Part shown: positions 4,518-19,875 of the stretch, one piece after another
Layout of the letters: each line of letters begins with the position of its first letter
Numbering within the stretch: position 1 is the first letter of the stretch
From: Candidatus Palauibacter sp.
Lineage (GTDB): Bacteria; Gemmatimonadota; Gemmatimonadetes; Palauibacterales; Palauibacteraceae
Direction: 5' to 3'
Length of the DNA: 64,000 nucleotides
NCBI RefSeq assembly: GCF_965216145.1
Contig: NZ_OZ244149.1
Location: 417,011-481,010 of the forward strand
Program-made: the position numbers and the translations under genes
The notes under the pieces: generated by a model
The model's input: only the letters and a program-made list of their open reading frames with translations
What the model was told of the DNA's origin: nothing
Database searches by the model: none

Positions 4518-5354
4518 CTATCCGAGGCTGTCGCGCAGGATTCTCTCCAATTCGTCAACTACGGCCCGCATGTGCAGCTTGTCTTCCGGGCGCTCTTCAC
4601 TATTGCGTATCGTATCGACGACATTTGACCATGTCTTATGGATTTCGGGCAATCTGAGCATCTTGGGATCCGCATTTAGTGCTACGTGTAGCAGCTCTTC
4701 CGCGCGAGTAAGGTCGAAAGCGTCATACGCATTAATTTTTTTGATACAGGCAAGATGCTCATTGGGGAAGTCCAACATCTGATAAAGATTATCAATATCT
4801 CTTGACAGATAAGCAGTATCCTGAAGAGCGCTTACAACTTGCTCTGCGATGTCCGACATGTTTGACTGGTGTCGGATCGCGATGGCCTCCTCAACGGCGT
4901 TGGCCAAATTGTCCCGAATCCACTCGTACCGTTCTTCGCTACTTCGCCCGGGAGGATCGTAACACTTCACCACACGGGAAAGATCTTCATGTGCGCCGAC
5001 AGCGATCCTGAACGGATTCGGACCCCTTGCGGCCACATGTCCATCCCGGTTTCGCAGGCCGTGGATGCGAATCCCGACGACGCCCATCCCATCCTTCCAG
5101 GACTTCTCAATCTCGTATTCGACCCATGGCCGTCCGGTGGTGTGGGTTCCCACCAAGACCACCGTGCAGGAGCGTGCTCGCATCTGGTCGACGATCCACG
5201 CCCTGATGGCCGGAGCACCCTGACGCGTCAATTCCTCCCAACTGGTATCCGTCGCCGGTCTGTTTCCCTCAACCACGCCGATGTTCCGAACCGTCGCCGC
5301 TCGCCAGCGGTCGGTTTCGTAGTTAAAGCTGTAGAACACCCTTCGCTTTAGCAT
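4518..5354 (-). CDS. TIR-like domain protein (DUF1863 / ThsB-like) with AT-rich C-terminal helical extension
   Basis: Start set at the internal ATG (MLKRRVFYSFNYETDRW...), residue 94 of ORF 4518..5633. N-terminal VFYSFNYETD ... CTVVLVGTHTTGRPWVEYEIEKSW ... GVVGIRIHGL fits the flavodoxin-like TIR/DUF1863 pattern. Confidence 0.65.
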   Translation of the reverse strand: MLKRRVFYSFNYETDRWRAATVRNIGVVEGNRPATDTSWEELTRQGAPAIRAWIVDQMRARSCTVVLVGTHTTGRPWVEYEIEKSWKDGMGVVGIRIHGLRNRDGHVAARGPNPFRIAVGAHEDLSRVVKCYDPPGRSSEERYEWIRDNLANAVEEAIAIRHQSNMSDIAEQVVSALQDTAYLSRDIDNLYQMLDFPNEHLACIKKINAYDAFDLTRAEELLHVALNADPKMLRLPEIHKTWSNVVDTIRNSEERPEDKLHMRAVVDELERILRDSLG

Positions 5355-5454
5355 GCCGTTCCTCCACGGCTCCCATCCACTATCACCGGCGACCGCGGGG
5401 GCGACATCGGTCGGAGGAGCGAGAACGAGATAAGATGCAACTCGGACGCCAGTT

Positions 5455-8190
5455 CTATCGCGCGGGCCGGACGCCTCCCTTGCGGCGCAGACCGTAGCCG
5501 ATCCGGAAGACATCCGGGACATCGACGCGGTCATCCCGGAGGCGACGGAAGATACCCAGGGACTCCAAAGCCTCGCGGAGTTCATCGTGGTCATAATCCA
5601 TATGCGGCAGCGGGAGCCGCCACCCGTCTCCACTACCCGCCTGGGCCAGCTGCTTCAAGACGCGTCGCTCACGCCACAGATGAACGACTTCCTCGAAATC
5701 ACACGGAACAACCCGTCCGGAGAGCGGTTGCATCAGCACCTGCACCCATGGATAATCCTCCTGTAGCTCCCGAACCCGCGTCGTGGACGCCTCCCGCACA
5801 CCGTGCTTGATGCTCTGGTAGTGAAGGGCGTAGCCATGATCCGGATGGCGTTCATGAGAATCTTCCGCCGCTGAGCGCAACGCCGTGAGAAACGAGCGCG
5901 GACTGACCTTGCCCCCGGCGTCGGCGAGGTGGTTTGGGATCCATGTGTACGGGTATCCGCGTCTCCGATCAGTGCCCATCCACGGGCCCGCGAATTCGTG
6001 GAACTTGTCGCGCTGGGCCCCCTCGTCGCGGTCGAGCGGATACGGCACTTCGAAGCGCGGTGCCGTATCGTCATCAGTCGTGGACCAGTGTCCGTCCTGC
6101 AAGCGCGGACGGACGAGGTCACCTCGTGGACCGTTGGCCAGGGAATGCCAAAGCAGGCCGTAGAGATCCCGGCGCGGCCAGCTGAGATCGACAGCCGACG
6201 ACAACACTTTCGAAGCGTCCGGAAAGTCCGTGATCCGCCGCTCGTCCACCTGATCAGTTCTCAGGAAGATCTTCGCGCGCAAGCGGCGATACGGACGCAT
6301 GTCGAGGGCGTGCTCCAGCAATCCTCGAATCAGCTCGGACGCAGTCTGCCAGTCGGAGGCGGCGCGATCCAGAGCGTCAAATAGCACGACGGAATACACA
6401 CCCCTTGAGTCCAGTTCGACATCGATAGTCCGCAGGAGGTCGAGGACGACACTCGGGTCATCGAGGACGTACCTCGCGCGTTCAAGCCACGTATCGAACT
6501 GTCGTATCGGATGGTCGGCACCCGCCACCGCGCACGCATGCACGGTTCGCCAGATGATCCGGGGCTCCACGTTGTTGGCGATTAGTCGACAAAGATCGTC
6601 CCTCACCGGATAATCGCCCGGCACATTGGAGACACCGAATCCCGACTCGACGACTGAATCTTCGTTCAAAGGAAAGCCCCGCACCTCTCGCCCCAGCGAG
6701 CGACGAACCTCGGGACTCTGCAGGGCGCGCCACCAGAATGTCTTGCCTGAGCCGCGCATTCCAGTGACGAGCATCGTGTCGGGGTGCATGGCCTTTCGAT
6801 GCGAAGGCGGGATGTACACGGCCGACGACGGGACGGGCTCGCCGTAGCTCGCCGGATCGGGCAGCTCGCTGAACGCGAGGCGCACGGTCTCGGCCCGGGT
6901 CGGGTCGCCGACTGGCTCGGGGCTTCGGTAGAGCAGGTCGAACCGTCGGAGGAACTCCCTGTACGCTTGGGCCACCGTCGTTCGCTCCAGCTTCCGGAGA
7001 GAAATTCCGGCCGCGAACCCTCGTGTCCAATGGATCACCAGCGGATCATGCTGCCCCTCCTCGGACGACAGGTCAGCCGACACCCCCTCATCCGTTTCCC
7101 CGAGATCCACGATCTCGTCCTGCAGGCGATCCCGAAGGAGGATTCGTGCGTTTTCCCGGAACCGTTCGACGTACCGCTCGGTATCCGTCTCGGGCGTCAA
7201 GGCGGAGACGATCGACAGGCGTTCGCGTATCCGGGATGCCATGTTTGTGCGCGCCCAATGATCGAACAGAATCCCGTAGTCCGTCCAATGGCTGTCGGAG
7301 TCGACGGCGAACAGCATCACCTCCGCGTCCAGATCCGTCACCGTTGCCGCCGCAATATCGTGGAGGCCGCTCCGGCTCTCGATGAGCACGACGGTCGGGC
7401 TGAACTCCGTTTCCAGGTTCACCACCAACCGCTTCAAGCGACTCGTCCAAGGATCGATCGCCGTATCCATGTACGTGCGCCCGAGCTTTGCGAGGTATTC
7501 CCCCGGCTTCCTGCCGTGCGCCGGCGCCACCAGCACACGTCCCGGCAAGTCATGAGCCCAAGAGGGCTTCCCCGTCATCCGGCTCACGACATGATCTCCC
7601 TGTCCGACCAATTCTTCGACGAACCAGTCCGTGACGCCGAACTCCGGCTCGGCCGGGGGTTCCAACATGGCCGACGCCAGCCCGGGCGACTCTAGGTCCA
7701 AATCGATGACAAGCACATCCTCCGCCTGCCGGGCGAGGTGCCACGCCAACACCGCCGCCGTCGTGCTGCGCCCCACCCCACCCTTCACCGAGTATAGGAC
7801 GTAGCGGGCCGGGTGGTGTTCGCTCGACGGGTCCGGGACTGTCCACCATTCTTGGCCGACGACGAGCCGGTCGGCCCAATGAACGCCGGGCCTGATCAAC
7901 TGCGCCGTGTCGCCCAGCGTCTCCAGCAACGCGGGATCTACGAAGAGCACTGTCTTCTGCGGCAGGTGTCCGTGGGCCGCGAGCGCATCCGCCAAGCGAC
8001 TCGCCAAGCGGCTCAGCACTTCGCCGAGTTCGCGATCATCCTGGGCTGCTTCCGATACCGATATGCCGACCTTGCCGAAGAGGTTGCGCACGAGGTATAG
8101 CGGCGGTGCGTCGGCTGGGATCTCCATCCCTTCCAGCACCTCCGATACGAGCCGCCGCACTTGGTCGAACGGAACGAAGGTGTCGCTCAT
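5455..8190 (-). CDS. Dual-NTPase protein: ParA/MinD-like domain with deviant Walker A (KGGVGRST) plus a second P-loop NTPase (GMRGSGKT)
   Basis: Start at internal ATG (MSDTFVPF...), which overlaps the stop of the upstream 140-aa gene (ATGA). YSVKGGVGRSTTAAV followed by DVLVIDLDLESPG is ParA/Soj-like; LVTGMRGSGKTFWWRAL with later VVLFDALD gives a second Walker A/B pair. Confidence 0.7.
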   Translation of the reverse strand: MSDTFVPFDQVRRLVSEVLEGMEIPADAPPLYLVRNLFGKVGISVSEAAQDDRELGEVLSRLASRLADALAAHGHLPQKTVLFVDPALLETLGDTAQLIRPGVHWADRLVVGQEWWTVPDPSSEHHPARYVLYSVKGGVGRSTTAAVLAWHLARQAEDVLVIDLDLESPGLASAMLEPPAEPEFGVTDWFVEELVGQGDHVVSRMTGKPSWAHDLPGRVLVAPAHGRKPGEYLAKLGRTYMDTAIDPWTSRLKRLVVNLETEFSPTVVLIESRSGLHDIAAATVTDLDAEVMLFAVDSDSHWTDYGILFDHWARTNMASRIRERLSIVSALTPETDTERYVERFRENARILLRDRLQDEIVDLGETDEGVSADLSSEEGQHDPLVIHWTRGFAAGISLRKLERTTVAQAYREFLRRFDLLYRSPEPVGDPTRAETVRLAFSELPDPASYGEPVPSSAVYIPPSHRKAMHPDTMLVTGMRGSGKTFWWRALQSPEVRRSLGREVRGFPLNEDSVVESGFGVSNVPGDYPVRDDLCRLIANNVEPRIIWRTVHACAVAGADHPIRQFDTWLERARYVLDDPSVVLDLLRTIDVELDSRGVYSVVLFDALDRAASDWQTASELIRGLLEHALDMRPYRRLRAKIFLRTDQVDERRITDFPDASKVLSSAVDLSWPRRDLYGLLWHSLANGPRGDLVRPRLQDGHWSTTDDDTAPRFEVPYPLDRDEGAQRDKFHEFAGPWMGTDRRRGYPYTWIPNHLADAGGKVSPRSFLTALRSAAEDSHERHPDHGYALHYQSIKHGVREASTTRVRELQEDYPWVQVLMQPLSGRVVPCDFEEVVHLWRERRVLKQLAQAGSGDGWRLPLPHMDYDHDELREALESLGIFRRLRDDRVDVPDVFRIGYGLRRKGGVRPAR

Positions 8191-8609
8191 GGCGTCCCTC
8201 CCTGCGCAGCCCATTGAACCATCAGCCGAACCTCTGACGCCGCCCGACGATGCGGCTCGACGTAGGCCTCATCGAAGTTCCCCCGGCTGGCGTAGCGGTT
8301 ATGGTGCGACCAATCGGAGAACGGTTCCCCGCCCGGAAGCTGCGCAAGCAGCGCGCCCGCGCCTCGCTGCGCCGCGAACTGGTCGAACACGTTCCACAGT
8401 TCCTCGATATGTACGCGATGCGCCCGCTCTTCCGGCGCGCCGTCGGGGCGAACGAGCATACCAAGATTCTGCATGAGCGACTTCAGGCCGCACTCGGCGC
8501 TGAACCCGTACAACTGATCCGCGTTGGCCCAGCGACGCGCGGCCGACAGGTACTCGGCATCTTCCCAGTGTCGCTCGTGCGCGTCCTCGAAGTCCGCCGC
8601 GTAGATCAT
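8187..8609 (-). CDS. Hypothetical protein (140 aa), translationally coupled to the dual-NTPase gene
   Basis: Clean ORF starting MIYAADFEDAHERH; stop overlaps the downstream start. N-terminus resembles the methyltransferase C-terminal tail and the 65-aa orphan ORF. Contains RAHRVH, a weak R-x4-H HEPN-like hint only. Confidence 0.55.
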   Translation of the reverse strand: MIYAADFEDAHERHWEDAEYLSAARRWANADQLYGFSAECGLKSLMQNLGMLVRPDGAPEERAHRVHIEELWNVFDQFAAQRGAGALLAQLPGGEPFSDWSHHNRYASRGNFDEAYVEPHRRAASEVRLMVQWAAQGGTP

Positions 8610-8803
8610 GCTAGCTCATGGCCCCGCGCAGCGCGCGTCGTGTTCAGATCCATCAGACGAGCGAGCACCTCATTGCGCACGTCGCCCGGCGGTCGGGTCA
8701 ATAGGGTGTAAGTGCCATGAGGCGGCGACCTTCCGTGGCGCTCATGAGCGTCCGTGAAGTCAGCCGGATGGATCACGAGTCCCCGGCAAGAATAGATCGG
8801 CAA
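8606..8803 (-). pseudogene. Orphan 65-codon ORF: probable remnant of a gene 3' end, homologous to the methyltransferase C-terminus
   Basis: Translation ...HPADFTDAHERHGRSPPHGTYTLLTRPPGDVRNEVLARLMDLN aligns with the methyltransferase C-terminus ...HETDEDERRRARAPHRYRWPNEVRDEVLARLMALN. Alternative start, no upstream context; lies in the 418-nt gap after the truncated ATPase. Confidence 0.3.
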
Positions 8804-9027
8804 TCCGCATGTTCACCCTCCATGGTCGGCTCGTCGCCGTCTGCGGTGCGGTTTCGGCGGTCATGCATGATACTGTGGCGCTCCAAGTTAGACGCCGGAG
8901 CGGTTTCTTGCTCCACCGCAGCCTCGCACGGCTACTGCGGGACATCGCAAGAGGTCGTGTCGATCGACCCTCTTCCGAGAGCTCCGCGGCGGAACTCCGT
9001 CCGGTGAGCGTCCGTTTCCTAAGGGGG

Positions 9028-9822
9028 TCACGGCTGTTCTTGAGGGGGTGTAGCGCTTTCGGCAGCACAGGCGATGGCGTCAAGCTTCTCGCTCACTTCC
9101 GGATCGACATCCGCAGGCGGCATGTGGCCGACGAGCCGGTAGAAGTTGCCCTTCGGCATGAGGTTTGGCAGGCCCAGCTTCGAGAAGTACGCGGTGAGCA
9201 GCGGCTTCAGGAACTCCGTGCTCACCTTCAGGTCGGCGCCCCACGGCGACGGCTTCCCGAGACGCCGCACGTTCACGGCGCCCTCGTCGAGCCGGGTCTC
9301 GGCCGCAGCCAGCCCCGACATCGGCGGCAGGAAGGCCATCCTCACGCTCCCCGCCTCGTCGGGGACGGGCATGCGGTCGGGAACGCGATCCTCCGTCAAC
9401 CGCAGCGGACGGCAGTACACCGACTCGTCGTTCGCGTAATCGAACTCGAGCCCGCACGTCCAGGCACGCCCGCGGGTCACCCCCTCGACGATGATGTCGA
9501 TGCGGATGTTCCTCGTTTGCTGTTTACCGCCTACGTACCGCACATCTCGCACCCGAAGATCCCGCCACGCGAGCTTAACGCTCGGAATTGGAATGGACAC
9601 GAGATCGCGACGGTTGATGGTCACGCCCGGGCGTTTCTCGGGCGTTCTCTTGCCGGCCCGCTTGGCGTTCCACTGGGTCAGCCCCGTGTGCCACAGGGCG
9701 AGCGCCTGCATGGCGGAGGTCTTGCCCGAATTGTTGGGTCCGATGAAGACGACCGGGCTCCCGAGCTCGACTTCGACGTCTTCGAAGCGCTTGAATCTTC
9801 GAATGGTCAGCTTTGTCAGCAT
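9028..9822 (-). CDS. AAA ATPase N-terminal fragment (AAA_15/AAA_21-like, as in GajA/PtuA/OLD-family ATPases), probably truncated
   Basis: Start at internal ATG (MLTKLTIRRFKRFEDVEVELGSPVVFIGPNNSGKTSAMQAL). Walker A present, but no Walker B, signature or H-loop before the stop at 264 aa. Confidence 0.5.
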   Translation of the reverse strand: MLTKLTIRRFKRFEDVEVELGSPVVFIGPNNSGKTSAMQALALWHTGLTQWNAKRAGKRTPEKRPGVTINRRDLVSIPIPSVKLAWRDLRVRDVRYVGGKQQTRNIRIDIIVEGVTRGRAWTCGLEFDYANDESVYCRPLRLTEDRVPDRMPVPDEAGSVRMAFLPPMSGLAAAETRLDEGAVNVRRLGKPSPWGADLKVSTEFLKPLLTAYFSKLGLPNLMPKGNFYRLVGHMPPADVDPEVSEKLDAIACAAESATPPQEQP

Positions 9823-9901
9823 ACGACGCCACCACTTCCCGTCCGGTCGCTTGCATGCGGCTTCAGCCAGCAGAGCAGCGGAACCGCGCATGGCGCACTG
9901 C

Positions 9902-11272
9902 TCATCTGACCCCCTGGAACTCCGCATCCACTCGTTCCAAGTCACGTCTCAGGTCATTCGCCGCTTGGCGCGCAAGGCGGAGCCGTTCCTTCTGATTCCG
10001 GCACCGTTCGCCCAGTTCCGAATAGCATATGGACAGATTGAGAAGTGACGAGAACAGGCCTTGAGCTGCCGTGTCGACCGCCTTGAGATCTTCCGGCGAA
10101 AAAGGCAGATCGCTTCCGCGCTCACCAAGTTCTTGGCCTTGCCCCGCCAGCTCGCGTAGACGCAGATCGCACTCGTTCGGCGTGCTCTTACCCGCTTCGA
10201 GATCGGAGAGGACGCGGATCACATTTTGCACGAGAGGACGGCTGGCTGAAACAAGTGTCTTGATCTCCCTTAGCATGGGCCCCTTCTTGCCCGTATGCTG
10301 TCGATGGAATTCTCTCCAGTGCCCGTACTGGTGATTCCAAAGAATCGAGACACCATCCCAAACTTCGTCACCGTCCCACGGCATCGGACGACAGGATGGA
10401 TCGAGGCCCGGATCAACCCACTGAGTTCGCGCAATCCAGTTCGCGTGACGAACGTCGTCGTGTCCGCCCGCCACATAGAGGTATACGACGTCTGCTCTAT
10501 GCCCGGACCAAAGCGCCTCAAGTTGAGGACTTCGGTGGTATTCCTCTTCGCGAATCTCCGGAAGAGCCCGACTGATCACGTCCCTAACGCCATCGCGCCC
10601 CGCGTGGCGATCAACTACCAGCACCGCTGAATAACGCTTGGCACCCGCATGACTCACGTCCTCGAGCCGCACGATCTCGTACGGCAGGTCGCCCTTCACC
10701 GGCACTTCGAGGATTGCGTCGGGCGCACGACGCTGGCCACAGGCACACGTCCCGTCGTTACGGAACAGCTTCCCGTCCCGAGGGCAGATCTTCTCGTATG
10801 CGATGAGGAGCCGGGCGCAATCAACCGTATCGACGATGAGGTGTGGGACAGTCGCGTCGCTGGCCGTCTGCGCAAAGTCGCGTCGCGCATCATCCTGAAT
10901 GTCCCCTACGGCCATCAGCACTGCCAAACCGAGGTCCGGTATCGTTCGGAGCTTAGCGAACTGATGAGAAACGATTTTGCTCGTAACCTTCGGGAAGGAA
11001 GGACCCTTCAAGACGAAGCCGGCGGTAACCGGACGACCACGTAGGACGATCCGAGTCGTAACGATGTCGGCGATCTCCGTTGGACCGTGTGGCGTTTCGT
11101 TCGGGTCGAAGAGGATCTCACGAACTGCTGATTCCAGCGCACGTTCGTTCAACCGCCGAACCTCCGCGAGCACGTCGTCAGACACGCCTGTGGCTGGAAT
11201 CCGAACCACCTTGGCGAACTGATCGATTTCACCGAGCGCCACCAAACGGGCCCGGTTCACGCCGATCCCCAT
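9902..11272 (-). CDS. Hypothetical protein (456 aa) with Cys cluster and C-terminal coiled coil; candidate partner of the methyltransferase
   Basis: Start at internal ATG (MGIGVNRARL...), 29 nt after the methyltransferase stop. Contains CPRDGKLFRNDGTCACGQ and a charged C-terminal helical region. No confident family assignment. Confidence 0.5.
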   Translation of the reverse strand: MGIGVNRARLVALGEIDQFAKVVRIPATGVSDDVLAEVRRLNERALESAVREILFDPNETPHGPTEIADIVTTRIVLRGRPVTAGFVLKGPSFPKVTSKIVSHQFAKLRTIPDLGLAVLMAVGDIQDDARRDFAQTASDATVPHLIVDTVDCARLLIAYEKICPRDGKLFRNDGTCACGQRRAPDAILEVPVKGDLPYEIVRLEDVSHAGAKRYSAVLVVDRHAGRDGVRDVISRALPEIREEEYHRSPQLEALWSGHRADVVYLYVAGGHDDVRHANWIARTQWVDPGLDPSCRPMPWDGDEVWDGVSILWNHQYGHWREFHRQHTGKKGPMLREIKTLVSASRPLVQNVIRVLSDLEAGKSTPNECDLRLRELAGQGQELGERGSDLPFSPEDLKAVDTAAQGLFSSLLNLSICYSELGERCRNQKERLRLARQAANDLRRDLERVDAEFQGVR

Positions 11273-11303
11273 CCGGTCGTGAAAGACCTGTTCTGCCTTG
11301 TTC

Positions 11304-14300
11304 TCAAGTCGTTCCTCCCGCCGACAGGTGTTGCGTACCCTGCGCACGTTCGGAATTTAGAGCCATCAGGCGGGCCAACACCTCGTCCCGCACCTCGTTG
11401 GGCCAGCGATATCGATGGGGTGCCCTTGCACGGCGACGCTCATCTTCGTCGGTCTCATGGTTGAGCAGGAACTCGCATCGGGTAGGGATGTCGGACCAGC
11501 CGTACGCATCGAGGACGACCCGATCGATGTCCGCGTGAAGCTCGCGGAGCCTCGATACCGCCGGATCCGTTTCGTTCCGGTCGTGGAACCGGTTGTACGT
11601 CTTGGTCAAGCCCTCCTGGTTGTGAAGCATGAGGTCGCCGCGAAACTCGTAGTATGCCTTGCCGACTCGCTCCCGGACGGGATCTGCATGCCAGTCTGGA
11701 GGAAACGGGAAAGTCTCAAAGCAGTCGGACGGCGTGTACCGCAGCCGTTCCTCAAGCGTCGACCCGAAAAAGCGTGCCCAAACCTCGTGAACGCGGGATT
11801 GAAGGACGCAAAACGCTGCGTAAGTGTCCATGGAAAAAATCACAAGAGTGTTGGCGAAAACCATTCGGGCTGGAAGAAACGCTAATGCCAGATGGGGCGT
11901 GGCACCGCAGTTGACGGCCAACACTCGATTCAAATCCGCGATGGTCGCGTAGAGTCCTGCAGCTTTTTCGGCGTGTTGCCACCAACGCTCTCGACGCACC
12001 TTACGGTTCTGTCGCTCACGGTCGGGCTTCACCTTTTCTTCTAGAATCTGCACTAACTCTGGCCATCGCTCGCGGCACTCGTCCTGCCGACGCTTGCCAA
12101 AGTTGATCACGTAGCGGTGATGCGCTTGCGCGAGGCTCGTGTTGACCTCCTGCCCGCCAATGTAGGGGAAGATCACTTGCGCATTGTGCGGATCCTCAGC
12201 GATAAGCCTCCGCATTTCGGCCAAGGGCGTGGCCACTCCCTTGGTGTCGGTGTCGTCGAACGTGAAGCCCATGCCGAGGACGATGCTCCCCTGAAAGCTC
12301 TGCTCCGCGTTTTCCTTGAGCCGCGGCGGGTCGTCGTTCCCACCTGCGTGGAACAGAAATGCCGTGATCCGTTCGACGGCGGCGTCATCGAGCGATTTCT
12401 GGTGCCCGAACCTCCCTTTCACGATGTGCAGGACGCTGACCACTACAGCCGCAACGCCCGGCCACTTGAAGCGGGTTTGCGCGCGGTAGATCTCTCCGCC
12501 GCGCGTGCAGATCCAGCGGAGGCCCGTGGACCGGGTGTCGCCTTGCGAAATCGTGTTCGTCGCGATGAGGCCCAGCGTGCCTTGTTTGCGCAGCAGGTTG
12601 AACGACCGCCGGAAGAAGTGGGCGACCAAATCCGCGTTGCCGTGGCTCCGCGCGTGCAGTTCCTTGAGCCACAGCGGGTAGCCGGGGACGTTCGAGGCCG
12701 CGACGGTGTTCTTGCCCGCGAACGGCGGGTTCCCGACGAAGGCGTCAAAGCCCGGGTTCCGGCGCTCGAACACCTCCGGGAACTCGATCTCCCAGTGGAA
12801 CGGGGCGAACGGCGTGGTCTCCTTCCGTTTCGCGGCGAGGCGCCCCCCGTGGGAGAGAACGGCGAGGCGTTCCGTATCGCTGTCGCCCAGAAGAGACGCG
12901 AAGTGCTGCCGCCGGCGGGCCTCCCGCTGCCTCGCTCTTGTCTCGAGGAAGAACGCCTCCAGCGCCAGATCGCCGAAGAACCGGACGTCCGTCAGCGCCG
13001 CGTTCGCGTCGTCCAGCTTGTCTCGAAGTTCCCGCTGGTCGATGTCGGGCGGCGCGTCCCTGATCTCCCCGCGTAGCGCGACCACGCGGTCCACTGCGTC
13101 CGAGACCACGGTGTTCAGCTCCAGCTGGGGCGGCAGGGATCCCCTCTTCCAGGTGAAGGCGGCGATCTGCGGCTTCGCCAGGCCGACCAGGGAGTCGCCG
13201 TCGCGGAGGGCGTGGTCCACGAAGGTGAGCGGTTCGTCCTTGGCCAGGGTGGCCAGCCACAACGACATCTTGGCGAGGTCCACCGCCATGGGGTTGCGGT
13301 CCACGCCGTAGAGGCAGCGATGCGCCACGAGACGGCGGGCGAACAGATCTTCGTCCTCCCCGGACGGGAGAGCGGGGAGCGTTCCGTGCATCCGCCATGC
13401 GGTGACGAGATGGTCGCCCAGTTGGCGGCAGGCCTCGACGAGGAAGGCGCCCGAACCCATGGCGGGATCGCAGACCTTGAGATCGAGGATCTGCTCGGCG
13501 CGGGGCGGGCCGCCGTCTCCGAGGCGTTCGAGGATCGGTTCCAGCGCTTGCCGCACGATCGGTTCGGTGAGTTCGCGCGGCGTGTAGTGCGATCCCGAGC
13601 GCCGCCGCGCCTCGCTGGGCTGGAGGATCATCGCGCCGCGCGGCACCAGATCCGGTGTGGCCGCCGCGTCGATGACGTTGTGCAGGGAGGCGTGCGCGTC
13701 GGCGAGCGTTTGCGCCGCGCGGAGGGGCTTGCTCACGGTGGGCGTCAGCTTTCGGCCCGTCCGGTCAAGAATCCATTTCGGGCGATCGACGGGCGCAACA
13801 TCCAAGAGCAGTTCCAGATCCACCGTTGTCGAGGCTCCGAGCTTCTTCTGCGCCTTGACGGCGGCGGACCGGCCCGTCGCGGTCTCCAGCCGGAACCCCA
13901 TCATCGTCTCGTACACGGAGCCGATCTGCTCCACGTCGAGCGCGCGGTACGAGATCCGTTCGCCGTCGAGGACCAGCAGCTTGTCGAGCACCCGGTAGAT
14001 CGTTCCGTCCGGCACCAACGGAACGTCGATCCCCTCGTGCACCTGCGGTGCGCCGCTCCCGCGCCATCCCTCGAGGAACGGGAACCGACTCGGGCTGAAC
14101 AGTTCTCCGCGCCGCGGCGGGAGTCTCATTCCGTCGCACTCCGCCCCGTCGTGGACCATGCGAAACAGCACGACGAGCTGTGCCCACGCCCCGTAGCGCT
14201 GGTCCATCGTGTCCGGGTTGAGCGCCGCGTCCTCCCTCAGCCTCTCGTACAGTCCGCCCAGCGAATAGGAGCCGAGGAAGGTCGCGTCGTCCGACAACAT

Positions 14301-15359
14301 CCCGCGCTCTTCGGCGTAGAGCACGAACACGAGGCGCAGTACGACGGTGAGGAGCGCGCGGTACACGTTGTCCGGATCCTCGTCCAGCGCCTCGCGCAGA
14401 AGCTTACCGTGCGACGCGTCGTGCGCCGCCTGGAAGCCACGCAACAACTCGTGCAGGGCGTGCAGCACCTGCTCGGCCAGCCGCTCGCTGACCACGTTCT
14501 GGTACTTGCGGCTGCTCTCCAGAAGGGCCGCCAGCCGTTGCTCCCGCGGCAGCGCCAGCAGCCGCTTCTCGGAGAGGAGGAGGCGTAGCGCCGCACACAG
14601 CGGGCGGCCCGCCGTGGAGAGCATGTCGCCGACCCGGAAGTCCATCCACCCGGAACTCTCGCCCCGCGGCGCGGACATGAGCCGGATCACGCGTCCGTTG
14701 AAGAGCAGCCCGGCGGGGACCCCGGTGCGGCGCAGCAGCCGTTCCATGCGCCCGTGGGGCGAGGCCTCGAGCCGGCCCGCACCCGTGGCGACGCGATCGA
14801 GGTCCTCCCCGGGGTCGAGGACGGTGACGAGCAGTTGCCACGGCACGCCTCCCTCCGCCGGATCCCGTTCGCGCACGGCGAGGCGGGGCCGCAGCACATC
14901 CCGGTATTCCTGGAGGCTGACCTCCAATTCGGGAGGAATGGGCGAATCGCCTATGCCCGCGTAGCCGCTGGGCGAGAAGCGCCAGCCCAGGACGGATCTC
15001 GCAAACGCTTCGAAGTCGGGCAGGTAGGGTTCGGGTTCTGCCGAGGTGCCGAACGCGCGTTCCCGGACGCACTCGTTCAGAAGCCGCTGTCCCCCGATGT
15101 CCCGCCGGTCAAGCACCGCGCCCGCCTGGACGAGCGCGTGTGCGGACACCACGAGCCCGGTCGGCTGGATGAACCCCAGCCACTCGAGGTGGTCCCGGAC
15201 GTAGGGCGAGGGCTTGGCCACGCGGCTCAGCCGGTCTCGGGCCAGAGATACACGAGTCCGACCGGCTCCACGCGACGCGCCCGCACCCGATAGAAGTCCT
15301 CGATCCGCGCCGGCTCGTCGCGCAGGTCGCGCTCGAACTGCTTGAGCCGGTCCCGCCAC
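11304..15359 (-). CDS. Gamma-class N6-adenine DNA methyltransferase (PglX / type IIG / Eco57I-like), ~1350 aa
   Basis: Motif order X-I-IV: SGSHYTP, then DPAMGSGAFL (SAM-binding motif I), then FVGNPPFAGKN (catalytic NPPF). Long N- and C-terminal extensions. ORF-track start is an alternative codon overlapping the helicase 3' end; the true start may be about 45 codons downstream. Confidence 0.8.
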   Translation of the reverse strand: MAGPAQAVRARPARRAGADRGLLSGAGASRGAGRTRVSLARDRLSRVAKPSPYVRDHLEWLGFIQPTGLVVSAHALVQAGAVLDRRDIGGQRLLNECVRERAFGTSAEPEPYLPDFEAFARSVLGWRFSPSGYAGIGDSPIPPELEVSLQEYRDVLRPRLAVRERDPAEGGVPWQLLVTVLDPGEDLDRVATGAGRLEASPHGRMERLLRRTGVPAGLLFNGRVIRLMSAPRGESSGWMDFRVGDMLSTAGRPLCAALRLLLSEKRLLALPREQRLAALLESSRKYQNVVSERLAEQVLHALHELLRGFQAAHDASHGKLLREALDEDPDNVYRALLTVVLRLVFVLYAEERGMLSDDATFLGSYSLGGLYERLREDAALNPDTMDQRYGAWAQLVVLFRMVHDGAECDGMRLPPRRGELFSPSRFPFLEGWRGSGAPQVHEGIDVPLVPDGTIYRVLDKLLVLDGERISYRALDVEQIGSVYETMMGFRLETATGRSAAVKAQKKLGASTTVDLELLLDVAPVDRPKWILDRTGRKLTPTVSKPLRAAQTLADAHASLHNVIDAAATPDLVPRGAMILQPSEARRRSGSHYTPRELTEPIVRQALEPILERLGDGGPPRAEQILDLKVCDPAMGSGAFLVEACRQLGDHLVTAWRMHGTLPALPSGEDEDLFARRLVAHRCLYGVDRNPMAVDLAKMSLWLATLAKDEPLTFVDHALRDGDSLVGLAKPQIAAFTWKRGSLPPQLELNTVVSDAVDRVVALRGEIRDAPPDIDQRELRDKLDDANAALTDVRFFGDLALEAFFLETRARQREARRRQHFASLLGDSDTERLAVLSHGGRLAAKRKETTPFAPFHWEIEFPEVFERRNPGFDAFVGNPPFAGKNTVAASNVPGYPLWLKELHARSHGNADLVAHFFRRSFNLLRKQGTLGLIATNTISQGDTRSTGLRWICTRGGEIYRAQTRFKWPGVAAVVVSVLHIVKGRFGHQKSLDDAAVERITAFLFHAGGNDDPPRLKENAEQSFQGSIVLGMGFTFDDTDTKGVATPLAEMRRLIAEDPHNAQVIFPYIGGQEVNTSLAQAHHRYVINFGKRRQDECRERWPELVQILEEKVKPDRERQNRKVRRERWWQHAEKAAGLYATIADLNRVLAVNCGATPHLALAFLPARMVFANTLVIFSMDTYAAFCVLQSRVHEVWARFFGSTLEERLRYTPSDCFETFPFPPDWHADPVRERVGKAYYEFRGDLMLHNQEGLTKTYNRFHDRNETDPAVSRLRELHADIDRVVLDAYGWSDIPTRCEFLLNHETDEDERRRARAPHRYRWPNEVRDEVLARLMALNSERAQGTQHLSAGGTT

Positions 15360-18300
15360 GAGCGGATGTTGGCCCGAAGCTGCTTCCGGTCCTCGTCGTC
15401 GAGGGCGAGCGTGAGCTGGGGTTCCTTCTCGTGCCGCTGCAGCTCCTTCTCGACGCGATCCCGCTGGCGAGTCAGGGTCTCGCGCAGCTCCCCCGCCTCC
15501 CGCTCACCGCGCTCGCTGAGACGCTCGGCCGCCTTCTTCGCCAACTCCTCCGCTCTGGGTTCCAACTGGGGTCTCAAGTCGCCGATGTCTGCGGGGGCCG
15601 CGGCGAGCAGCCGTTCCCGCACGGTCTCGCTCGGCTGCGACACCCGTTCCGAGTCGAGCACCCGGTCGAGCAGGGCCAGCGTCTTCCGCTCCGCGTCCGC
15701 CCGGTATCGCTCCAGCGGGCCCTGGCGGCGTTCGGGGTCCGTCCAGCGGGCCGTCACCGTAACGATCTCCTCGTGCAGGCGCTCCGCGCGTCGGCCGTAT
15801 AGCGACAGGCGCCCCAGCAGCACGACCCGGGGGATGGAGTCGGCCACCTGCGCGAGACAGGCCCGCGACAGGTCGTGGTGCACGAAGCCCTGCGCCCGGA
15901 ACCGGGCCAAGAGGCGCTGCGCGACCCGCTGTTCAAGGTGCAGGTGCACGACATCGTCCGTCAGTTCGCCCGGATCCTCGAACACGACCGGGCGGACGGG
16001 CGCCTCCCGCCGCCACTCCACGATCTTCTGATCCCGCTTCATCGGTGCGCGCAGCGTGTCGAGGGTCGACGCCCACGAGGGGTCCGCCGCCACCCGTCCG
16101 TCGAGGGCCGGGAACGACCACACCGCCCGCCCGTTCTCGTCGCGCGCCTCCCTCAGCGGCGCCGCGTTCTGAAGCCCCAGCGAGCACGACAGCGCCCTGC
16201 GGAATGCCTCAGGACCGAACCGCACCCACTCGCGCGACTTCTCGAGCAGGTTCCGGCAGCGCTCGATCTGATCCTCAAGATCGCTTTGCCGCTCGCGCGC
16301 CGACTCGAACTCGTCCGCCACGCGGCGCTTGCGGTCCGCCTCCAGATCCATCCCCGCCAGCGTCTCGGCGAGCCCCGTGGCATCACGGCGCCGAATCCCC
16401 TGCTTGAGCCGCTTCTCGATGTCCTCCTCGATCACCTTCGAGAGGCTGCCCAGCTCCCGGCGGATGGTCTCGGTCTTCCTCACCAGCACCTCGAGCACCC
16501 GGTCTTCGTGACGCTGGGGCAGGGTGAAGTAGTGGCAGCGCACTTCGTCCGCGGGCTGGAGCTTGCGGTCGATCCGCCCGTTGCGCTGCTCGATCCGGCC
16601 GGGGTTCCAGGGCAGGTCGAAGTGGAATAGGTCGGTGCAGTGCGCCTGGAAGTTCAGCCCCTCGCGCGCCGCATCCGTCGCCAGCAGGATGCGCAACGGA
16701 TCCCGCGACGGAGGCGTGTTGAAGCGGCGCTGGATTTCCTTGCGCCGCGCGCCGCTCGTGGCCCCCTCGATCACGGCAATCCGCTCCTCCGCCCTGTCCG
16801 TTCCCGCGATCGCGTGCGACAGCGCGTCCCTGAGGAACCGCTTGGTGCCCTCCACATGCTCGGTGAAGATCAGCACCCGGCGCTCGTTCCAGCGGGGCGT
16901 CCCCACTGCAGGCATTCCAAAGGGCGGAAGTTCGGGACACAGGTTCTCCCGGATCCAATCGAGGAGCGCGCGCGTCTTCGCGTCGGGGTGCGTGCGCGCA
17001 GAGTCCGCGACCTCCTGCATGCGGTCGAGCAGGCGCTGCTCCTTCCGCCACAAGTCCTCGATCCGGGCATCGCGCTTCAACGCCGACTCGGCCTCCCGGT
17101 TGGCGGCCTCGATCTGTGCTTCCTCCGCAGCTTCCTCAGCACCGTCGAGGATCTCGTCGTCCGCCCCCGGTGTCGTCAGGAAATCCTCCGCCAGCGCCCG
17201 GCGCGCCGCTCCGCCGCGAGCGTGCCGCTCGTCGCTTCCCGCGTTGCGGCCGGTCCCGGCCTCCCATTGCCTCTTCACCGTCTTCCGGTGCCGCGCGAGA
17301 CTGATGGCGAACGCCTCGATGGACGACAGCAGGCGCTGTTGAAGGCCGACGACGAGCAATCCCGCCGCCGCCCGCCCCCGGGCCGTCGCGTGGGCGAAGC
17401 GCTGGTCGCGCACGGAGCGGTATTCGTCCAGCAGCCTTGAGAGCACGAGTTCCGGCGCGTCCTCCGGCAGGTTGTCGATGACGACCGGTCTCACGTCCCG
17501 CTTGGGGAAGCCGCCCTGGATCTCGCGGATGTCTTCCTTGAGACGGCGGATCATCACGGCGTCGAGGTCCGTCTTCCCGCGCACCGTCACGCCTCGCGTG
17601 AAGCGGTGCGGGTCGAGCAGTTCCAACAGCGTGGAGAAGCTGTTCGAGTGCCCGTTGTGCGGCGTCGCCGACAGGAAGAGACGATGCTCGAAGCGGTAGC
17701 AGAGGTCGCGAATCGCGCGCGTGAACTTCGACTCGATGCCATACCGCCCGCCGTGGCTTGGGGCGGCGTGATGCGCCTCGTCCAGAATCAGCAGGCTTCC
17801 GGGCGACATCGTTCCGAGCCACTCCCGCATAGGATCCGCGTAGGCGGGATCGGCCAACAGCCGGTGCGAAACGAGGAACCGGCTGTGCGTCCGCCACGGA
17901 TTCACGCCGAAGCCGCGCTCGCGGCGCATCGTCGCCACGTAGTGCCGGTCCAGGATCTGGAACACGAGCCCGAACCGCTCCTCCATCTCCGCCTTCCACT
18001 GCTCCAGCACCGAGGGAGGCGCGGCCACAACGATGGTCTTCGCCTTTCGGCGCAGGAGAAGCTCGCGCGCGATCAGCCCGGCCTCGATCGTCTTGCCCAG
18101 ACCGGTGTCGTCCGCGATGAACAGGTTCACGCGCGGCAGGCGGAGGGCCTTCCTCAGCGGCTCCATCTGGTAGGCGTCTAGGGTGATCCCGGCCCGGAAC
18201 GGCGCCTGAAACAGCGACGGATCGGTCGCGGTCGTGCAGCTCCACCGCAACGTGTTGAGGAAGGCCGCGAAGTACTCCGGCGAGTCGAAGCCGCGCTCCG

Positions 18301-18589
18301 CCAAGTTCTCCCACGGCTCATCATCGAGGATGGCGCGGTCGAGCTCGTACTTCCAGAAGACTTCGAGTTCCTGCCCCTGCGCATCGTCATCCGCGCACGC
18401 CAGCCGGACCCGCGCGGACTCACTGGACTGTCGGCCCCCCGTCACCTCCTCCACCAGCCAGCGCCGTGTACGTACCCGCACCATCTCCCCCACCTCCGGA
18501 TCCCGGCTTGGCAAGCCACGGGAAAGCCGAGGGTCACCGTGGGCGTTAGCTGCGTCATGGGAACCGAGCGGTTCCAGGTCAGGCGTCAT
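15227..18589 (-). CDS. SF2 helicase, SNF2/DEAH-type (DISARM DrmD-like / BREX helicase-like), ~1120 aa
   Basis: Helicase motifs I LFIADDTGLGKT, II LLILDEAHH, III LFLSATPHNG, VI QRNGRIDRKLQ; long C-terminal coiled-coil region. Confidence 0.8.
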   Translation of the reverse strand: MTPDLEPLGSHDAANAHGDPRLSRGLPSRDPEVGEMVRVRTRRWLVEEVTGGRQSSESARVRLACADDDAQGQELEVFWKYELDRAILDDEPWENLAERGFDSPEYFAAFLNTLRWSCTTATDPSLFQAPFRAGITLDAYQMEPLRKALRLPRVNLFIADDTGLGKTIEAGLIARELLLRRKAKTIVVAAPPSVLEQWKAEMEERFGLVFQILDRHYVATMRRERGFGVNPWRTHSRFLVSHRLLADPAYADPMREWLGTMSPGSLLILDEAHHAAPSHGGRYGIESKFTRAIRDLCYRFEHRLFLSATPHNGHSNSFSTLLELLDPHRFTRGVTVRGKTDLDAVMIRRLKEDIREIQGGFPKRDVRPVVIDNLPEDAPELVLSRLLDEYRSVRDQRFAHATARGRAAAGLLVVGLQQRLLSSIEAFAISLARHRKTVKRQWEAGTGRNAGSDERHARGGAARRALAEDFLTTPGADDEILDGAEEAAEEAQIEAANREAESALKRDARIEDLWRKEQRLLDRMQEVADSARTHPDAKTRALLDWIRENLCPELPPFGMPAVGTPRWNERRVLIFTEHVEGTKRFLRDALSHAIAGTDRAEERIAVIEGATSGARRKEIQRRFNTPPSRDPLRILLATDAAREGLNFQAHCTDLFHFDLPWNPGRIEQRNGRIDRKLQPADEVRCHYFTLPQRHEDRVLEVLVRKTETIRRELGSLSKVIEEDIEKRLKQGIRRRDATGLAETLAGMDLEADRKRRVADEFESARERQSDLEDQIERCRNLLEKSREWVRFGPEAFRRALSCSLGLQNAAPLREARDENGRAVWSFPALDGRVAADPSWASTLDTLRAPMKRDQKIVEWRREAPVRPVVFEDPGELTDDVVHLHLEQRVAQRLLARFRAQGFVHHDLSRACLAQVADSIPRVVLLGRLSLYGRRAERLHEEIVTVTARWTDPERRQGPLERYRADAERKTLALLDRVLDSERVSQPSETVRERLLAAAPADIGDLRPQLEPRAEELAKKAAERLSERGEREAGELRETLTRQRDRVEKELQRHEKEPQLTLALDDEDRKQLRANIRSWRDRLKQFERDLRDEPARIEDFYRVRARRVEPVGLVYLWPETG

Positions 18590-18831
18590 GCGGAGCGTCC
18601 AAGGGCACGTACCGGGTCATTCCGGTTGGGCGACAGGATGACCGACACCTCAGCCCTCCGGCAAGCTCTCGCGCGTCCCTCCCGCCGTGCCCTCCCATGT
18701 TGCATACTCGCTCCTCGTAGCCAAGCACCCCGCCTCCGATGCAACCTTTCGGATGTCGCCCGGTTTTCCGCATGATCGTATCGTTCGACCGGCTCGACCT
18801 GTCACCGCGTGCGTCCGTCAAAACGCTTATC
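18590..18831. promoter_or_regulatory. Divergent intergenic region between the helicase operon (-) and the SIR2-like gene (+)
   Basis: About 240 nt non-coding spacer between divergent starts; appears to contain a short inverted repeat (GTTGCAT ... ATGCAAC). No promoter consensus confidently identified. Confidence 0.3.
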
Positions 18832-19875
18832 ATGCATATGCTCACGAAAACTGAACTTACGGGCTCTCCACAAAACGGACGCCCTCACGTTGTCCTTCTC
18901 GGCGCGGGTGCAAGTAGGGCCGCGTTTCCCGATGGGGACCGACACGGCAGATCCATACCCCTAATGTCTGACCTCGCAGACCTCCTCGGATCGCCCTGGA
19001 CCGATCTTGTCGTGCGCGCCAGTCCTCCGGTCAACGGCTTTGAGCGCCAATTCACTTGGCTAAGGGATCAGCATCGTTACACGGATTCTCTCCATGAAAT
19101 AGAGTCCTCCCTTTTTGACTATTTCGTGAACCTCGCTCTACCGGACCACGCAACGATTTATGATCATCTTGTCCTAGGACTTCGCCGGAAGGATGTAATT
19201 GCGACGTTCAACTGGGATCCGTTTCTGCTTCTTGCCCATCGACGCAACAGACTTCCTAATCTGCATCTTCCCGACATCAGGTTCCTTCACGGCTGTGTGC
19301 TGTACGCCAGTTGCATTCAGCATTCTGAAGTGCTTGGCTCACCAGGGGAGATCTGCCCTCGCTGTAACAAACCTCTAACTCGAAGCAGTTTGATCTTTCC
19401 CGTTGAAGACAAGAACTACGTCGACGACCGCTTGATCGCTGAGGATTGGAGGGCGGTGACGGATACACTCCCAAGAGCTTTTCAACTGACCATATTCGGA
19501 TACTCCGGTCCGTCGACGGACTACCAAGCCAAGACGTTGCTCCGAGACGCTTGGGGTGCTTCGGCTACTGACGATTCTTCCATGTCCCCCATACGTCAAT
19601 TCAGCCACCTCGAGATTATCGACACCGTGAAGGGCGGTGAACTGTATGAGCGCTGGAAGGATCTCATTCCTCTCGACCACCTCATGTCGACCGATACGTT
19701 CTGGGATTCCTCGATGGCCAGATGGCCCCGCAGAACCGCGGAGTCTAAGTTGCAGGCGAGCATCTTTGCGCGAATAGTTGAACCCCTCGGTCCGTGTCGC
19801 ACGACGAATCTTGGGGAGCTCCAAGAGTTCCACATGGAGCTTGCAAGAGTGGAGAGGGAGAAGGGTGTGGAGTAA
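18832..19875 (+). CDS. SIR2-like (SIR2_2 / DHS-like NAD-binding) protein, stand-alone
   Basis: Start at internal ATG (MHMLTKTEL...). VVLLGAGAS (Rossmann-like), IATFNWDPFL (TTNYD-like), FLHG (catalytic-His position), IFGYSGPSTD (GYSxxD). Locally lower G+C than the flanks. Confidence 0.6.
   Translation: MHMLTKTELTGSPQNGRPHVVLLGAGASRAAFPDGDRHGRSIPLMSDLADLLGSPWTDLVVRASPPVNGFERQFTWLRDQHRYTDSLHEIESSLFDYFVNLALPDHATIYDHLVLGLRRKDVIATFNWDPFLLLAHRRNRLPNLHLPDIRFLHGCVLYASCIQHSEVLGSPGEICPRCNKPLTRSSLIFPVEDKNYVDDRLIAEDWRAVTDTLPRAFQLTIFGYSGPSTDYQAKTLLRDAWGASATDDSSMSPIRQFSHLEIIDTVKGGELYERWKDLIPLDHLMSTDTFWDSSMARWPRRTAESKLQASIFARIVEPLGPCRTTNLGELQEFHMELARVEREKGVE

Follow-up and report, generated by a model that had tools for sequence, protein, structure and literature searches.

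A probable recombination scar in a DISARM-associated defence island of Candidatus Palauibacter joins the start of a HEPN gene to the end of a methyltransferase gene

Orphaned 3' gene fragments are known from Rhs, contact-dependent inhibition (CDI) and type VI secretion system (T6SS) effector-immunity loci, where their proposed origin is homology-facilitated illegitimate recombination (PMC5361080; PMC3240628 for T6SS/Rhs). Class 1 of the defence system DISARM is composed of drmD, drmMI, drmA, drmB and drmC (10.1101/2021.12.28.474362, PMC9142583). The locus described here is a DISARM-associated defence island in the genome of a Candidatus Palauibacter (Gemmatimonadota), analysed in a stretch of 64,000 nucleotides of contig NZ_OZ244149.1 that is referred to as the window. 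Its minus strand carries, as the preliminary description of the sequence had listed, a 65-codon open reading frame (ORF) at 8606-8803. Judged by the sequence comparisons presented below, this ORF is very probably a non-genic recombination scar, left where a patch from one kind of defence locus (type 2) entered a locus of another kind (type 1). Like the orphans of the Rhs, CDI and T6SS loci, the scar keeps the short 3' end of a large modular gene beside a formerly coupled downstream gene, has one end in conserved sequence and another that appears illegitimate, and belongs to a locus for conflict or defence whose cassettes are exchanged horizontally. Unlike these orphans, the fragment in the window stems from a DNA methyltransferase and not from a toxin, is only ~28 codons long, goes back to a single event without forming an array, and forms an in-frame fusion with the 5' end of a duplicate of the downstream gene itself. 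The scar is a fresh example of a known phenomenon, the orphaned gene-end scar in a defence island.

The composition of the ORF was determined with two profiles, which were searched against all stop-to-stop six-frame fragments of the window with filters off: a tail profile made from nine C-termini of the methyltransferase DrmMI from other loci, and an N-terminus profile of 22 positions made from the N-termini of 119 homologues of PDC-M28A, the 140-amino-acid (aa) protein with a HEPN fold that is encoded directly downstream of the ORF. Matches to the tail profile were limited to the genuine methyltransferase tail (E 1.4e-30) and the ORF (E 6.2e-9, 31.9 bits, bias 0.0), with the next best fragment at E 0.035; the aligned stretch of the ORF is RPPGDVRNEVLARLMDLNTTRAARGH (window 8695-8618, profile positions 33-58). 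The N-terminus profile matched only the 140-aa protein (E 1.2e-12) and again the ORF (E 2.7e-8), with the next best fragment at E 0.24. Since both profiles single out the frame of the ORF besides the true gene, the resemblances are real and not compositional. At its end, the frame carries the conserved extreme C-terminal DrmMI motif RYRWPxxVRDEVLARLxxLNxxRA, of which YRY and the W of YRYRWP are lost, and at the DNA level this relic shares just 32/42 nt (76%) with the tail of the resident methyltransferase. The ORF contains neither the catalytic domain of a methyltransferase nor a target recognition domain (TRD), with no match in Pfam or PADLOC, and in a tblastn comparison of the whole methyltransferase with positions 8560-9100 the match is confined to the last ~25 residues. 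Nor is it a full-length PDC-M28A (profile of ~138 positions, no PADLOC match); family positions 1-14 alone match.

These results change the picture given in the preliminary description, in which a segment of ~40 aa was thought to be triplicated. Instead, two unrelated segments are present in two copies each, namely 14 codons of the HEPN gene and ~26-28 codons of the methyltransferase tail. The alignment of the ORF with the last ~45 methyltransferase residues holds for these ~26-28 codons, for which the tail profile gives the E-value above, and fails for its left third (HETDEDERRRARAPHRY against HPADFTDAHERH...), which was rejected as homology, the ORF stretch there being the 5' end of the HEPN gene. 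The resemblance of the first part of the ORF to the start of the 140-aa protein is borne out by the N-terminus profile, and the TGA of the ORF does overlap the ATG of the 140-aa gene as described (GCATGATC, 8606-8609). In the following, A denotes the genuine end of the resident drmMI and A' its relic in the ORF, B' the first 14 codons of PDC-M28A that are found in the ORF and B those of the intact gene; their positions are listed in Table 1. Related loci are designated by L numbers and homologous proteins by P numbers.

The first half of the ORF leads to the type-1 layout. Two homologues whose gene calls extend upstream, P0047 (MCGLPIYFCRGLVIHPADFTDAHERHWEDAECLF...) and P0004, read through 'CGLPIYSCRGLV' into a full PDC-M28A with the pattern CGLPIY.CR.LVIHPADF.DA.ERHW, and because they read straight into M28A, the first 25 residues of the ORF are a translated leader followed by the first 14 codons of M28A. 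The true start of this severed copy is GTG 8776 with GGGGA ahead of it. B' is identical to L001 in 42/42 nt and to L088 and L089 in 40/42 nt each, and the leader of ~250 nt is 84-89% identical to the type-1 loci L003, L088, L087, L004 and L001. In type-1 loci, drmMI is followed by a gene for ~455 aa, an AAA_15 ATPase of ~580 aa, the leader and M28A (L003, L088); in L087 the end of the ATPase, the leader and M28A are visible, and L001/L002 show the type-1 order without the ATPase. According to blastn, the window is collinear with L003 from 15909 to 8735, save for a deletion of ~950 nt in the ATPase gene, and in the alignment it departs from all type-1 sequences right after ...GAGCGCCAC, which is codon 14. 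Searches of the leader and scar gave no sigma-70-like promoter and no terminator (8400-9400) and no Rfam match at E <= 1 (8400-9200).

The second half of the ORF leads to a different parent. When the tail of the ORF was compared by tblastn with the first 84 related loci, it matched the extreme C-terminus of 8/8 DrmMI-type genes and nothing else, and A' is 74-83% identical at the nucleotide level to various methyltransferase tails. From 8690 to 4519 the window is collinear with L089 8095-12275 (blastn, 81.9%), beginning inside the last methyltransferase ORF and continuing through its stop codon and M28A into the TIR gene. In L089, this methyltransferase ORF, with ...RYRWPNAVRDEVLARLMELNAKRAVRDRRLS* as its last residues, shares 4 nt with the GTG start of M28A (GTGA); in the distant L115, a contig of 5.2 Mb with 49x coverage, the last methyltransferase module adjoins M28A with an ATGA overlap. 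The type-2 layout, with the last drmMI module directly before M28A and a 4-nt overlap, is defined by these two loci. As the junction of methyltransferase tail and M28A kept in the window is also present in L089 and L115, it is an established gene junction. The preliminary description had suggested looking in related genomes for a second methyltransferase or a longer ATPase at this position, and both occur: the ~580-aa ATPase lies upstream of M28A in L003, L088 and L112, and the methyltransferase module directly upstream of it in L089 and L115.

Two candidates were considered and dismissed in this comparison. L089 could itself have been the carrier of a scar, namely a duplicated methyltransferase 3' end; the same succession of core, module 1 and module 2 recurs, tightly packed, in L112-L117. 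L115 was rejected as donor of the patch, as its M28A starts with MTLQVDFATAHRRH. A scan of genome contigs with M28A yielded 80 loci, 0 of them with a methyltransferase tail directly upstream of M28A, and the same scan of JGI metagenome contigs gave relatives of <=58% identity and no new close locus. With the 42 aa of the ORF's tail half as query, a search of 5.8 billion proteins returned no candidate homologue and did not identify the donor methyltransferase.

The diverged sequence does not end with the methyltransferase stop codon. The first 42 nt of the intact M28A gene differ at 9-11 positions from each relative compared in register (L001, L086-L089), the changes being ATG for GTG, TAC GCG for CAT CCG, GAG for ACG and several synonymous ones, and the alignment with L003/L004 gives the same changes private to the window. 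From nt 43 on, the gene is ~90% identical to its relatives, so that 6 window-private substitutions in nt 1-42 stand against 9 in nt 43-423 (Fisher p 0.0017). Since the changes in B are synonymous or fall on positions that vary in the family, B appears to be an allele that had long been functional elsewhere and not the result of decay. B' and B form direct repeats with 32/42 identical positions. The right boundary lies at a conserved run of 25 nt, CACTGGGAAGATGCCGAGTACCTGT, which is almost invariant among the closest relatives compared. The inserted patch measures ~168 nt, made up of ~126 nt that end in the methyltransferase tail and the 42 nt of the diverged M28A start, and is located directly after codon 14.

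Between B' and A', a segment of 41-44 nt (8734-8694) gave no significant collinear alignment to M28A or to any methyltransferase tail (p 0.2-0.8), gapped attempts included. Within it lies CCGCCTCATGGCACT (8725-8711), which nearly repeats, out of frame, the motif that codes for ARLMAL in the tail and has one mismatch to the tail of L001; sites with <=1 mismatch number 2 in the 64-kb window, the other being the real tail at 11359-11373. The segment starts with GGAAG, which is also present in the resident gene (CAC TGG GAA G) and in Arg-Lys codons of tails, e.g. in L089 (AGG AAG). It is possible that the left joint was guided by this microhomology, as an illegitimate joint with a short extra templated piece. 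The whole insertion is shared with L085, a 35-kb metagenome contig from another assembly, which is 99.8% identical to the window from 18514 to 4504 (14 kb) and contains the same 168 nt base for base. L085 also carries, right after the ThsB-TIR gene at 14106-16975, a block of ~2.9 kb with insertion sequence (IS) genes (IS110 transposase, rve, HTH_Tnp_1), which the window lacks at the corresponding place (~4505) and which is a population-level insertion polymorphism.

The simplest history would be a single short-patch event. The resident locus would have had the type-1 order drmD, drmMI, 481-aa gene, AAA_15 ATPase, ~250-nt leader, PDC-M28A (HEPN), M28BC and ThsB-like TIR, into which ~168 nt from a more diverged type-2 locus were inserted right after codon 14 of the resident M28A. 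In the donor, a full methyltransferase module is pictured as preceding ATGATCTACGCGGCGGACTTCGAGGACGCGCACGAGCGACAC, and its patch would have comprised ~126 nt, ending in the last ~28 codons and the stop codon of the methyltransferase, together with donor M28A codons 1-14. The product would then read leader, B' (resident codons 1-14), junction, A', B (donor codons 1-14) and the canonical rest of M28A. The right end would have been resolved by homology in CACTGGGAAGATGCCGAGTACCTGT and the left end joined illegitimately, which makes homology-facilitated illegitimate recombination the candidate mechanism; a template switch to a type-2 copy and back would lead to the same product. Since the ORF unites the 5' end of an M28A gene with the 3' end of a DrmMI-type gene, and related contigs show each of the parental gene orders, the footprint of recombination between defence genes suspected in the preliminary description is upheld, although the word paralogous used there is imprecise, as the joined genes are mutually unrelated.

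Some points weigh against this history. The donor was not found, the relic is no closer than 74-83% to any sampled tail, and we infer the foreign origin of the patch from patterns of divergence. The 41-44 nt of the junction are unassignable, and the GGAAG microhomology was judged on typical tails (L089 AGGAAG) and not on the true donor. A history in two steps, in which the left part of a type-1 locus entered an old type-2 locus and the M28A body was converted, would give the same structure. Finally, an open frame of 56 codons is no evidence of selection at 68% GC.

Other explanations were weighed against the recombination scar. The drmMI tail and the M28A start could have been copied in place, for example by a tandem duplication and a later deletion in the middle of the second copy, and have diverged in situ without any foreign donor. 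A tandem duplication from the drmMI tail to codon 14 would yield exactly the B'/A' joint, and both source sequences are present on the same strand, 2.6 kb apart. However, A and A' as well as B and B' are each just 76% identical (32/42 nt), while in the flanks L003, L088 and L001, which lack the insertion, have 84-88% identity with the window. An in-place duplication is improbable because it would be younger than the split from these orthologous loci, yet its copies are more diverged than the loci themselves. In addition, the changes in B respect the constraints of the family as in a long-functional foreign allele, and a precise second deletion would be needed to recreate the ATGA junction that already exists in L089 and L115. 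The preliminary description also offered a peptide shared for interaction, that is, a functional docking motif common to the 140-aa protein, the methyltransferase and the small ORF. Each motif does show strong conservation within its family (RYRWPxxVRDEVLARLxxLN among methyltransferases, ADFxDAHxRHW in M28A), but they are unrelated to each other and each sits at its normal place in its own protein. In the HEPN bundle, the 14 residues from M28A make up a loop and one half of helix 1, the relic lacks the invariant YRYRWP, no other such ORF occurs in the ~117 loci examined and the search with its tail half gave no homologue in the protein database, which leaves this explanation hardly credible. 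We give similarly little credence to chance or compositional similarity, named in the preliminary description as what would speak against its observation, and to an assembly artefact. The genome has 68% GC and Arg/Ala/Glu-rich proteins, and metagenome-assembled genomes and metagenome assemblies can be chimeric; the profile matches, however, have E-values of 1e-8 to 1e-9, show zero bias and stand well clear of the next match, and the same 168 nt are found in the independent contig L085.

It must also be considered whether the ORF, scar or not, has been kept for a purpose. Neither conservation nor gene calling identifies it as a bona fide small protein-coding gene: the gene caller left the interval uncalled in L085, the ORF has no match in Pfam, NCBIfam or PADLOC, and no ORF of this make-up was found in the related loci. 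If it is translated, which may happen from the ribosome-binding site native to M28A, GTG 8776 is the likely start, giving 56 codons, and the chimera is probably without protein function. As the Shine-Dalgarno (SD) sequence before ATG 8609 is weak (GGGG at -16, GAG at -8) compared with GGAGG at this place in L089, ribosomes may reach M28A by coupling, and it is conceivable, if rather unlikely, that the 56-codon frame ending in ATGA hands them over to the intact gene. As in translationally coupled ATGA/GTGA pairs, the relic keeps the ancestral overlap of methyltransferase stop and M28A start (GTGA in L089, ATGA in L115). Unlike in those two loci, the upstream partner in the window is a putatively coupled 56-codon chimera and not a methyltransferase ORF. 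The ORF could even be retained as a functional leader, with the ATGA overlap needed to load M28A and the in-frame fusion selected. In favour of this, GTG 8776 retains the conserved GGGGA (8784-8780) and the leader, the frame of B' continues through A' up to the ATGA, and the SD of M28A is weak. On the other hand, an in-frame joint arises by chance in 1/3 of cases, a stop-free run of 42 codons is common at 68% GC, and only one lineage carries the ORF (the window and L085, 99.8% identical); a selected leader ORF is doubtful.

Table 1. Features of the defence island in the window, and repeat sites and tandem C-terminal modules of drmMI in related loci (positions in related loci are those of the respective contig).
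Feature	Sequence	Positions	Strand	Match or basis
drmD	Window	15227-18589	-	PADLOC DrmD, 1022 bits
drmMI, 1351 aa, DISARM class 1 MmeI-type N6-adenine methyltransferase	Window	11304-15359	-	PADLOC DrmMI 1266 bits; Pfam Eco57I, MmeI_Mtase, MmeI_TRD
A: genuine C-terminal motif of resident DrmMI, RWPNEVRDEVLARLMALNSERA	Window	11343-11408	-	Tail profile
481-aa gene, no Pfam/NCBIfam/PADLOC match	Window	9902-11347	-	
AAA_15 ATPase remnant, 305 aa	Window	9028-9945	-	Profile match limited to N-terminal ~45 positions
Conserved leader before PDC-M28A, from ATPase stop codon to GTG; SD-like GGGGA at 8784-8780	Window	8777-9027	-	
65-codon ORF: part of leader, B', junction and A'	Window	8606-8803	-	
B': first 14 codons (GTG ATC CAT ... 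CGC CAC = VIHPADFTDAHERH) of resident PDC-M28A, severed from gene body	Window	8735-8776	-	
Junction segment, uncertain origin	Window	8694-8734	-	
A': relic of last ~28 codons of a DrmMI/MmeI-type methyltransferase or its terminal module	Window	8606-8695	-	
B: first 14 codons (MIYAADFEDAHERH) of intact PDC-M28A; diverged copy that probably came with A'	Window	8568-8609	-	
PDC-M28A, 140-aa HEPN-fold protein, intact	Window	8187-8609	-	PADLOC E 5e-48
PDC-M28B + C fusion, 919 aa: KGGVGR-type ParA-like ATPase + Sll1717-type P-loop ATPase	Window	5455-8214	-	PADLOC M28C E 9.8e-162, M28B E 3e-119; NCBIfam NF047398, NF047389
ThsB-like TIR protein gene	Window	4518-5633	-	
Tandem C-terminal modules	L089	6882-8179		
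Tandem C-terminal modules	L112	28-1313		
Tandem C-terminal modules	L113	8372-9651		
Tandem C-terminal modules	L114	8371-9651		
Tandem C-terminal modules	L115	5371-6648		
Tandem C-terminal modules	L116, L117	6001-6645		
Repeat site	L116 vs L117	5300-5440 vs 5293-5440		
Repeat site	L089	6766-6865		
Repeat site	L114	8330-8350		
Repeat site	L115	5335-5350		

The gene downstream of the scar is assigned to PDC-M28A by its profile match, its HEPN-like helical fold and the M28B/M28C ATPase that follows, and the 140-aa and 919-aa proteins together match the PADLOC models A, B and C end to end. The PDC-M28 triad is conserved in ~100 loci from many phyla. In the window, B and C are fused, and the system is embedded in a DISARM locus, unlike most copies, which stand alone; a literature search found no paper mentioning PDC-M28. 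NCBI and UniRef name the 140-aa HEPN-fold protein and its homologue P0049 'SAM-dependent methyltransferase' (SAM, S-adenosylmethionine), and the 140-aa protein has no methyltransferase domain. Fusions of methyltransferase and HEPN domains number 0 among the 150 best representatives, the locus of P0049 has no methyltransferase nearby, and the name is probably a propagated misannotation. In P0202 (425 aa), a Fic domain (HPFRDGNGRTAR) is fused to a C-terminal PDC-M28A-like HEPN domain, which hints that the HEPN module can pair with other effectors.

Like DISARM class 1, the window has drmD and drmMI adjacent and intact. Unlike class 1, it has the pair of 481-aa gene and ATPase and the cassette of PDC-M28 and ThsB-TIR embedded after drmMI. 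A tblastn search with DrmA and DrmB of L001 found no homologue of drmA or drmB in the 64-kb window, drmC not having been searched for, and with drmD and drmMI present and drmA and drmB not found, the window does not contain the full gene set of DISARM class 1. The same block of L001 is followed by genes for a helicase (Helicase_C) and a DUF1998/MZB protein; L001 has drmA and drmB after this block, and the system in the window may be incomplete or its parts dispersed. A DDE transposase gene lies just past drmD (18739-19875, plus strand).

The ATPase gene upstream of the leader has lost ~950 nt (L003 6652-7600) by an internal deletion at ~9264: window 15909-9265 corresponds to L003 1-6651, and window 9263-8735 to L003 7601-8129. 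Through the deletion, the N-terminal ~186 residues are continued in frame by the last ~90, with a 3-nt GTC microhomology at the joint, and the resulting 305-aa remnant retains the Walker A region while most of the core is gone. The protein of ~450-480 aa that belongs to no family always follows drmMI in type-1 loci (window, L001, L003, L112), usually together with an AAA_15 ATPase, and the two may represent an unrecognised accessory defence module of two genes.

The 3' end of drmMI, from which the relic stems, is variable in the relatives. When the final methyltransferase ORF of L089 served as query, 57/120 of the best listed matches were 195-225 aa long, many of them on megabase contigs. The recurrent layout consists of a core of ~1130 aa (~1010 aa in L113, with IS110 after it), a module 1 of ~200-215 aa and a module 2 ORF of ~213-217 aa. 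Module 1 comprises half of the TRD and the tail, and so does module 2, which is encoded separately and overlaps the stop codon of module 1 or lies <=10 nt from it. In L089, modules 1 and 2 are 78% identical over 494 nt, and module 2 may serve as a spare specificity cassette or form a subunit of its own. Exactly at the joint of core and module 1, a simple-sequence repeat (SSR) is found: L089, L116 and L117 carry (GGCCCCC)n, with 14.3 copies in L089, while L115 and L114 carry poly-C of 13 or 14 C. L116 and L117 represent the same locus in two samples and are identical over 230 nt bar one heptamer; L117 has one ORF of 1346 aa and L116 has two (1144 + 199 aa). This ON/OFF difference of one heptamer suggests that a DISARM methyltransferase undergoes phase variation, for which a literature search found no describing paper.

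Poly-G phase variation occurs in Streptomyces pglX. Duplicated or variable specificity modules are described for Type I hsdS (10.1101/2020.06.18.137471), and phasevarions based on SSRs for Type III mod (PMC10123105). Like hsdS, mod and pglX, the relatives of drmMI carry an SSR at the joint of core and C-terminal module and a second C-terminal module ORF in tandem. Unlike these genes, the drmMI of the window itself is one single ORF, its core fused to a C-terminus of the module-2 type, with no SSR (Tandem Repeats Finder) and no second module, only the 28-codon relic. Damaged copies of drmMI were observed in L011 (4845-6243), where residues 47-466 are left ~750 nt upstream of M28A, and in L049 (2-1357), with an internal gap in the tail region; they are further signs of frequent rearrangement around drmMI.

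For annotation, these results mean that a pseudogene fragment or scar is the fitting label for the ORF, not a hypothetical protein, and that the 305-aa ATPase is a deletion remnant. The scar is a dated, base-resolved record of a PDC-M28/ThsB cassette moving between DISARM loci, and in the type-2 layout, translation of the HEPN gene would be coupled to that of the last methyltransferase ORF. The scar also marks the 3' end of drmMI as a hot spot of rearrangement, a site whose frequent rearrangement is seen from the SSRs and tandem modules of relatives, which gives the scar its context. To defence specialists, the heptanucleotide-repeat switch of drmMI between one ORF and two and the second C-terminal module in relatives will be of greater interest than the scar. 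We regard it as a rather speculative extension that the scar is the product of a recurrent, semi-programmed diversification of the drmMI 3' end, in which DISARM loci would exchange accessory effectors and specificity modules by recombination among conserved joints (the RVLA... module starts, the EVLARL tail and the ADFxDAHxRHW start). In relatives, this end bears a hypermutable repeat, two alternative TRD/C-terminal modules in tandem and a HEPN (PDC-M28) cassette that would be coupled to it in translation. If this were true, DISARM in these uncultivated Gemmatimonadota/Acidobacteriota would be variable in phase and specificity, with the state of the methyltransferase wired to a HEPN/ATPase/TIR module.

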